DNA from: Escherichia coli
GTDB taxonomy: Bacteria > Pseudomonadota > Gammaproteobacteria > Enterobacterales > Enterobacteriaceae
Direction: 5' to 3' (one strand)
Length of the DNA stretch: 898 nt
Assembly: GCF_003334315.1 (NCBI RefSeq)
Contig: NZ_QOWR01000127.1
Made by a program: the position numbers and the translations under genes. Below, piece after piece: positions 1 through 898 of the stretch (its first letter is position 1; each line of letters starts with the position of its first letter). Below the pieces are notes generated by a model. That model was not told where the DNA came from and searched no databases. It saw only the letters and a program-made list of their open reading frames with translations.

Positions 1-149
1 GGTTGAGAAGCGGTGTAAGTGAACTGCAGTTGCCATGTTTTACGGCAGTGAGAGCAGAGATAGCGCTGATGTCCGGCGGTGCTTTTGCCGTTACGCACCA
101 CCCCGTCAGTAGCTGAACAGGAGGGACAGCTGATAGAAACAGAAGCCAC
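1..149 (-). CDS. insA: IS1 InsA (transposition inhibitor / N-terminal part of the InsAB' transposase), 5' part only, runs off the window edge
   Basis: Minus-strand translation from the GTG whose complement is at 147..149: [50 protein letters not shown], continuing past position 1. It includes the CxxC...CxxC zinc-finger-like motif typical of InsA. Confidence 0.88.
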
Positions 150-181
150 TGGAGCACCTCAAAAACACCATCATACACTAA

Positions 182-204
182 ATCAGTAAGTTGGCATCAT
201 CACC
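182..204 (-). repeat. IS1 terminal inverted repeat (IRL-like), 23 bp, outermost base at 204
   Basis: Minus-strand sequence GGTGATGATGCCAACTTACTGAT against the canonical IRL GGTGATGCTGCCAACTTACTGAT as I remember it; the single difference is at window position 197. Confidence 0.8.
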
Positions 205-268
205 GTAGATGAGTTGTGTAAGAAAGTGACAAGTTGGATGTATTCGCATCCTGGAGAGAGAATTAGAT

Positions 269-700: not shown

Positions 701-724
701 AGCATCACGTGATGCTGATTTTTT
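701..724 (+). terminator. Candidate rho-independent terminator: perfect 16-bp palindrome followed by a T6 run
   Basis: AGCATCACGTGATGCT (701..716) is a perfect palindrome (6-8 bp stem), followed by GA and TTTTTT (719..724). It sits 41 nt after the stop at 658..660. On the minus strand it is preceded by A6 and followed by only T3, so it is weaker in that direction but could act bidirectionally. Confidence 0.4.
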
Positions 725-829: not shown

Positions 830-898
830 GTAATAAGCATAAGCTTGTGAAGAGATGGTGGCAGGCCCACCGGGATCTGCTGTCGGAAGTCGGTCCCA

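Follow-up and report, generated by a model that had tools for sequence, protein, structure and literature searches.

Features of the window

The window, by which we mean the whole stretch of 898 bp that was analysed, matches the chromosome of E. coli PSS-13 with 100% identity along its entire length (NZ_AP027704.1 3687009-3687906, minus strand). Among 5,426 complete E. coli genomes, PSS-13 is the only one with a full-length match free of differences. The search of the plasmid collection returned IS1 matches, one 87%-identical copy of positions 205-898 and one chromosome-like record, and nothing else; a plasmid origin of the window was rejected. The 87%-identical copy is located on a 149-kb E. 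coli plasmid (CP044307.1 24236-24936), where it comprises the rhs tail, the immunity gene and the downstream region. No gene is entered at these positions in the gene table of the plasmid.

Positions 1-204 are the left (IRL) 204 bp of a complete IS1 on the minus strand, and they differ from the IS1A of K-12 at a single base. The terminal inverted repeat IRL (ATCAGTAAGTTGGCATCATCACC; variant form GGTGATGATGCCAACTTACTGAT) occupies 182-204, also on the minus strand, and has A instead of C at IS1 nucleotide 8 (window position 197). The 5' part of insA starts from a GTG codon at 149-147 and is read on the minus strand toward position 1, away from the junction. The first-pass annotation had placed the IS1 end at 204 with insA transcribed away from it, had counted a spacer of 64 bp (205-268) up to the ATG codon at 269, and had given GTAGATGAG as the flanking 9 bp at 205-213; all three readings were borne out. 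The complete element is 768 bp long (5437-6204 of the PSS-13 locus, L001) and carries both inverted repeats, IRR (GGTAATGACTCCAACTTATTGAT) at the far end and IRL (GGTGATGATGCCAACTTACTGAT) at the junction end. This length, together with the imperfect terminal inverted repeats of ∼23-30 bp, identifies it as an IS1. The programmed -1 frameshift between insA and insB' is taken from the RefSeq annotation ('IS1-like element IS1A family transposase, programmed frameshift'). The PSS-13 genome is rich in IS1, with at least 40 IS1 places.

To the right of the junction, on the plus strand, lies the 3' remnant of rhsG (205-291), which consists of codons 1383-1410 (VDELCKKVTSWMYSHPGERIRYERFKTR) and the stop codon at 289-291. 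This remnant is contiguous with an RHS core gene in BE2-5, GCA_012987705.1 and B379; the intact gene encodes 1,410 aa and ends at window-equivalent 289-291. It is followed on the same strand by the putative immunity gene, dsORF-g1, which is present in two pieces: an N-terminal fragment of 72 aa (269-487; UniProt O52674), having a signal peptide with the lipobox VIGC, and a C-terminal fragment of 58 aa (484-660) in the -1 frame, having no signal peptide. A G7 homopolymer at 474-480 separates the two. The immunity ORF overlaps the end of rhsG by 23 bp, as it does in the intact loci. Downstream of it, a terminator-like hairpin (AGCATCACGTGATGCT) with a T run after it is found at 701-724 (plus strand), at the same site as in the intact locus. 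The GC content is 39% at 205-268 and 33% at 269-660, compared to 64% in the rhs core.

The right-hand end of the window (857-898, plus strand) matches the first 42 positions of the group II intron D1-D4-2 motif (Rfam RF01999) with 30.6 bits, the match being cut by the window end. This feature is separate from the IS1 finding. The full-length match in the PSS-13 locus (L001 6857-6977) scores 81.8 bits (gathering score 36; E 1.8e-16), and it sits between the terminator of the immunity gene and the ISAs1/H-rpt transposase gene. As no match to group II domain V/VI was found near it, it is either an isolated intron fragment or a part of the H-rpt leader.

IS1 joins flanks that are 27.3 kb apart in the intact locus

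IS1 normally generates target duplications of 8-9 bp (PMC12428005). We observed that the 9 bp outside IRR, located inside a truncated tssD/hcp gene, are GAATGCATT, and those outside IRL are GTAGATGAG; comparison of 8-12 bp at both sides of the element revealed no target duplication. IS1 copies in H10407, H9Ecoli and WCHEC050613 that share this IRL variant served as the positive control, and showed perfect 9-bp duplications. The pre-insertion locus, which the first-pass annotation had suggested reconstructing from genomes that lack the insertion, could be obtained from BE2-5 and B379. In these genomes, the two flanks are collinear, in the same order and orientation as around the PSS-13 element, and are separated by 12,407 bp in BE2-5, which is itself degraded, and by 27,308 bp in B379, which has the complete cluster.

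In PSS-13, the second hcp gene (tssD2) breaks off midway at IS1 (IRR at the left, IRL at the right), and the sequence resumes beyond the element at rhsG codon 1383, the junction 204/205 falling exactly after codon 1382. The DNA lost comprises the rest of hcp2, vasL, tssM, tssA, vasI, tssH, icmH, tssK, tssJ, tagH, tssG, tssF, tssE, tssC, tssB, hcp1, vgrG and rhsG codons 1-1382. As 27,308 bp separate the flanks in an intact genome, IS1 replaces the T6SS-2 cluster and rhsG codons 1-1382. A single IS copy without direct repeats, whose flanks are collinear in the ancestor, is the arrangement expected of an IS-mediated deletion. Therefore, we are confident that an IS1-associated deletion in the T6SS-2/rhsG island, beside the aspV tRNA gene of PSS-13, has its right-hand junction at 204/205.

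The sequence had originally been read as a simple insertion of IS1 that ends 64 bp short of a lipoprotein gene, duplicates 8-9 bp of the target and displaces only a local promoter. This reading is in keeping with the usual behaviour of IS1 and with the completeness of the element, both inverted repeats of which are present. However, GAATGCATT and GTAGATGAG are unrelated, the flanks are not adjacent in genomes without the element but 27.3 kb apart, and the spacer is rhsG coding sequence. The first-pass annotation had itself remarked that a missing direct repeat at the other IS1 end would suggest a rearrangement, and that repeat is absent. The simple-insertion reading is thus already refuted, and we give it practically no probability. 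Its further suggestion, that an upstream gene and the native promoter might have been removed, turned out to be correct, as rhsG codons 1-1382 and the genes upstream are deleted.

The 64-bp spacer itself is coding sequence of the rhsG toxin, and not a promoter region. The view of 205-268 as the upstream region of the lipoprotein gene was not upheld, as these positions belong to the 3' end of rhsG, with the stop codon at 289-291.

Route of the deletion

The most likely route to this arrangement consists of two steps. One IS1 would first have inserted in the AT-rich 3' end of rhsG, and an intramolecular replicative transposition from the other end of this element ('adjacent deletion') would then have followed; such a route would leave a single IS1 without direct repeats. 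IS1-mediated adjacent deletion was reportedly described by Reif and Saedler in 1975. PMC9330008, citing Turlan & Chandler 1995, describes deletions arising from intramolecular transposition of IS1, after which the remaining element lacks direct repeats. The PSS-13 junction resembles these products in having a single complete IS1 without direct repeats, between collinear flanks that are far apart in the ancestor. It departs from the full scheme in that the simple-insertion intermediate was not found among the 5,426 complete genomes.

A simple insertion at 204/205 is predicted to have the left junction GAAGATGTAGATGAG joined to GGTAATGACTCC, and an insertion in hcp2 would carry ...GGAATGCATT on either side of IS1. 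Among the 5,426 complete genomes, PSS-13 and ET745, both with deletion alleles, were the only ones with the right junction, and PSS-13 alone had the left one; there was no ancestor having IS1 at either junction together with a duplication. As this ancestor was not found, we infer the order of the two events.

The sister allele, ET745, has a right junction identical to that of PSS-13; at the left, its original junction reaches 268 bp deeper into hcp2. A second IS1 in inverted orientation is also present, and an inverted 9-bp repeat (TGAAACCGA) bounds it. This arrangement is the signature, and a classic product, of intramolecular replicative transposition of IS1 at this very copy; inversion, a second IS1 and an inverted 9-bp repeat make ET745 the companion outcome of adjacent deletion.

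In the ET745 locus (L004 440-3204), the two inverted IS1 copies flank an inverted hcp2-ykfM segment of 1.2 kb, a textbook replicative inversion. The only difference between the two copies is a patch of six bases at IS1 nt 247-265, and both are 94-95% identical to the PSS-13 copy.

We compared 11 genomes in which IS1 adjoins the immunity gene, taken from matches ranked by similarity to the window, including its IRL side. Their right junctions map at window-equivalent 97, 205 (PSS-13 and ET745), 206 (J31 and fS25a, with IS1 flipped), 245, 254, 270, ∼286, 304 and 305, that is, at no fewer than nine distinct positions between 97 and 305, with three alleles within 1 bp of 204/205. The left junctions all differ, and range in position from the vicinity of aspV to the interior of rhsG. 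None of the 11 IS1-bounded alleles has a duplication at IS1. The clustering of the junctions and the orientation of the element were not treated as significant, as genomes resembling the query on its IRL side were placed higher in the ranking.

One hybrid IS1 would also be left if two IS1 copies in direct orientation, one inserted earlier in hcp2 and the other in the 3' end of rhsG, had undergone RecA-dependent homologous recombination, and the absence of a duplication is predicted by this route too. It would suit a genome with so many IS1 copies, and is consistent with the mosaic nature of the PSS-13 element, which is IS1B-like on the IRL side and IS1A-like on the IRR side, as well as with the 11 IS1-bounded alleles, all of which differ in the left flank and most of which differ in the right. 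However, two prior insertions in the same orientation are needed, and neither was found as an intermediate in the 5,426 complete genomes. Mosaicism is frequent in all the IS1 copies that we compared, and is thus weak evidence. ET745, with its shared right junction, its different left junction and its signature of replicative inversion, favours transposase-driven events at an anchored copy. We consider recombination between two copies possible but rather doubtful, and favour an IS1 anchored in the rhsG tail followed by adjacent deletion as the most likely route.

The same junctions could be taken to mean that the AT-rich boundary of the rhsG tail and the immunity gene is a recurrent IS1 target, with repeated and independent IS1-bounded losses of T6SS-2 across E. 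coli, and that slippage between G7, G8 and G9 serves as a switch for the orphan immunity gene. We regard this combined proposal as unlikely.

In other E. coli genomes, IS1 junctions at window-equivalent 97-305 adjoin or cut the immunity gene. A simple IS1 insertion within the immunity gene (after ...GVIKKV) was seen in two proteins (P0009 and P0018), from KTE197 and FORC_081-like strains.

The substitution in IRL

The single base in IRL at which the window copy departs from the canonical repeat had been noticed at position 197 in the first reading of the sequence. With the K-12 IS1A (NC_000913.3 19796-20563) as the reference, both this difference and the canonical repeat assumed there proved to be correct: window 1-204 has exactly one difference, C to A at IS1 nucleotide 8 (T instead of G at window 197), K-12 IS1A reading GGTGATGCTGCC and the window copy GGTGATGATGCC. 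The entire PSS-13 element differs from IS1A at six of its 768 positions (8, 262, 298, 301, 304 and 561). It is a mosaic, having A8 and 262C/298C/301C/304T as in IS1B-like copies, and being IS1A-like at 393, 396 and 444.

Of the 5,426 complete genomes, 339 contain the exact 33-mer with the variant (window 172-204), at 2,076 places in total and in up to 37 copies per genome; ETEC H10407 and ATCC 8739 are among the strains that carry it. We checked four such copies, which sit on two different IS1 backbones. Three of them, in H10407, H9Ecoli and WCHEC050613, are flanked by perfect 9-bp duplications (GTGAATGAC, CTGCAACAG and AACGAACTG), and the fourth, in ATCC 8739, has no duplication. The A8 variant is a minor, recurrent and transposition-competent form of IRL. 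As it is found on at least two IS1 backbones, the proposal that it marks one distinct isoform was rejected.

According to PMC12428005, IRL overlaps a weak insA promoter. In our consensus scan, the only promoter-like match on the minus strand within IRL was ATGCCA-16-TATGAT at 197-170, the first base of which is position 197. No effect of the variant on this promoter is predicted, because C and A both mismatch the consensus T.

The rhsG tail encodes a putative L,D-transpeptidase-like toxin

In the intact relatives, the Rhs core motif DPxGL is present as DPIGL at residue 1231 and DPLGL at residue 1253, and is followed by a variable C-terminal domain; the GC content, which is 64% in the core, falls to 27-49% in the tail. 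In Pfam, this C-terminal domain matches YkuD (L,D-transpeptidase catalytic domain; E 3.6e-5), and it contains the motif H-x18-TMGC-TRAQNED. The IS1 junction of PSS-13 is located 8 codons past the catalytic Cys of this tail. Judged from its sequence, the C-terminal toxin domain of RhsG is a putative L,D-transpeptidase (YkuD)-like domain. A PDB sequence search with this domain gave no match, and no NCBIfam family matched it, the 130-aa immunity protein described below or the two fragments of the latter.

A known parallel is given by the L,D-transpeptidase-like Tlde1/Tldi1 pairs of Salmonella: the toxin is delivered by a T6SS and has the YkuD-type motif H...(S/T)xGC, and its partner is a secreted immunity protein; the action of the toxin on peptidoglycan in the periplasm was counted as a further likeness. 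The Tlde1 motif is HXX14-17-(S/T)HGCh (PMC9638812), in contrast to TMGC-T in RhsG. Unlike Tlde1, which is a free-standing effector, the RhsG toxin is the C-terminal domain of an Rhs protein, and no PDB chain, the solved Tlde1a structure included, matched it in sequence.

The putative immunity gene is split by a frameshift

The first-pass annotation had called the ORF at 269 a lipoprotein gene. The lipoprotein signal is present, with R5 in the n-region, the hydrophobic stretch INMGVCILIWV and the lipobox V-I-G-C23; the ORF itself, however, is not a complete gene but the N-terminal fragment of a frameshifted, putative Rhs immunity gene of 130 aa. One G added to the tract at 474-480 fuses the ORF at 269-487 with that at 484-660 into a single ORF of 130 aa. 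The protein of this G8 allele (P0001) was found on at least 1,000 contigs, and also in the intact locus of GCA_012987705.1.

The 72-aa product of the window is identical to the UniProt entry O52674, 'DsORF-g1'. The RhsG element with dsORF-g1 reportedly comes from the 1998 work of Wang, Zhao and Hill. The window is like this element in the identical 72-aa ORF and in the ISAs1/H-rpt transposase gene that follows; it is unlike it in that only the last 28 rhsG codons are kept, and in that the 72-aa 'dsORF' turns out here to be the first half of a gene for 130 aa.

A search of 1.8 billion representatives yielded 64 relatives of the immunity protein. Those of full length (118-151 aa, 28-50% identity) have signal peptides and align in one continuous stretch across residue 72, where the window copy is broken. 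C32, P35, D38, G51, G88 and G89 are invariant among them, and W107 and C111 are nearly so. Most homologues have a signal peptide but no lipobox, which means that conservation extends to secretion and not to lipidation. Residues 50-99 of the fused protein match Pfam DUF4367 weakly (E 4.6e-4), a match that we used only to show that the domain spans the frameshift. In the AlphaFold model (pLDDT 88), an N-terminal helix (residues 7-25) is followed by a single beta domain (residues 49-127); as the modelled domain runs straight through residue 72, the frameshift is predicted to cut one domain in two.

A PDB sequence search with the immunity profile gave no match, and a PDB fold search with the model gave only weak matches to small beta barrels, none of them convincing. 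The best of these had an E-value of 6e-3, and no fold family was assigned to the protein.

The context of the homologues is that of an Rhs toxin-immunity module: in the intact relatives, a core with a variable tail is followed by a small downstream ORF, and the pairing is conserved in distant relatives. The gene for one homologue (P0055, 34% identity) is found 3 nt downstream of an Rhs-type tail that is homologous to the C-terminal domain of RhsG (WVHGGGS...PTMGCTRAQNQDVEELCKK), and that for another (P0039, 50% identity) belongs to an array that also includes the immunity genes Imm57, Rap1a and MafI2. From position, conserved pairing and a secretion signal appropriate to a toxin that acts in the periplasm, we infer that the small ORF is probably the cognate periplasmic or lipoprotein immunity gene for the YkuD-like Rhs toxin domain.

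The array that contains P0039 (L018 3376-9552) is a tandem series of small genes matching Imm57, Rap1a, DUF7668 and MafI2. It is located between housekeeping genes and looks like an orphan-immunity island.

The length of the G tract, calls of which can be wrong in assemblies, varies among strains. G7 was seen in PSS-13, BE2-5, CFSAN061772, OkiPb01684, LR-17-1 and HeN100; G8, which leaves the ORF intact, in ET745, J31, fS25a, TST3, S1-INA-02-A, AR Bank #0346 and GCA_012987705.1; and G9 in 2023CK-01509 and B379. In B379, an apparently intact rhsG and T6SS stand beside the G9-frameshifted immunity gene, a pairing that points to either a homopolymer sequencing error or a real slippage.

Expression of the putative orphan immunity gene

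In the intact locus, the immunity gene is the last gene of hcp1-vgrG-rhsG-immunity, and it was probably co-transcribed with them formerly. The only plus-strand promoter match within ∼700 bp upstream in that locus is a weak 9/12 site ∼335 bp from the ATG codon of the immunity gene; this site lies inside rhsG, in DNA that is deleted in PSS-13. Upstream of IS1 in PSS-13, nothing reads in the plus direction for 1.9 kb. On the plus strand of 182-268, our consensus scan, which tests for consensus only, found no sigma70-like -35/-10 pair with a spacing of 16-18 bp, in agreement with the first-pass annotation, in which no convincing pair had been seen in 205-268. The weak match GTGACA reported there is present, at 226-231 and not at 225-230.

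IS1 could in principle supply the missing promoter. The hexamer TTGGCA at 191-196 matches TTGACA at five of six positions and faces outward, so that together with the flanking DNA it might form a fusion promoter; the orphan immunity gene would then be expressed, and the junction selected for that. Fusion promoters of IS1 are documented (Prentki et al. 1986 and others, as cited in PMC9330008), and IRL faces the gene in several independent alleles. However, there is no TAnnnT-type hexamer 16-18 bp downstream, GTTGTG, TTGTGT and TGTGTA at 213-220 not being -10-like; no -10 at the right spacing was found in PSS-13 or in the other junction alleles read by eye, and the candidate was rejected. The orientation bias is an artefact of the ranking, as the query contained the IRL side, and the immunity gene of PSS-13 is frameshifted. 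As other alleles cut its ATG codon or coding sequence (window-equivalent 270, ∼286 and 304/305), there is no sign of selection for expression. We consider a fusion promoter very unlikely.

Thus, because the former promoter has been lost, no substitute for it can be recognised and the G7 tract shifts the frame, the immunity gene of PSS-13 would most likely be a silent, non-functional and decaying orphan, with the reservation that a missing consensus promoter does not prove missing transcription.

Decay of the T6SS-2/rhsG island

The T6SS-2/rhsG locus at aspV was lost in ST410 by deletions involving rhsG (Cummins et al. 2023, PMC10711316). The ST410 and PSS-13 losses concern the same locus (tssA-M, two hcp genes, vgrG and rhsG) and are multi-kb deletions with one endpoint in rhsG. 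The ST410 deletions are of 21.0 and 19.8 kb with no mobile element at the junction, whereas that of PSS-13 is of 27.3 kb and bounded by IS1.

BE2-5 (L002/L003) and CFSAN061772 (L015) have a degraded T6SS-2 locus, though without IS1. The degraded loci without IS1 show a tssJ/vasL fusion, an rhsG that lacks the N-terminus and an rhsG-tagH junction, and there is no mobile element at the breakpoints.

The T6SS-2 locus decays by several routes. What is seen in PSS-13 is an ordinary scar of an IS1 deletion, in a T6SS/Rhs island that is undergoing decay. Public data and the literature already contain the phenomenon, the locus and the IS1 variant, and the current picture of IS1, Rhs and T6SS biology is unchanged. 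What changes is the reading of the window: the supposed promoter region is the stump of a toxin gene, and IS1 marks the scar of a deletion and not an insertion. One more route, bounded by IS1, is added to the documented losses of T6SS-2/rhsG in E. coli, and the long-annotated 72-aa dsORF-g1 is seen to be half of a secreted, putative immunity protein of 130 aa that is paired with a YkuD-like Rhs toxin.
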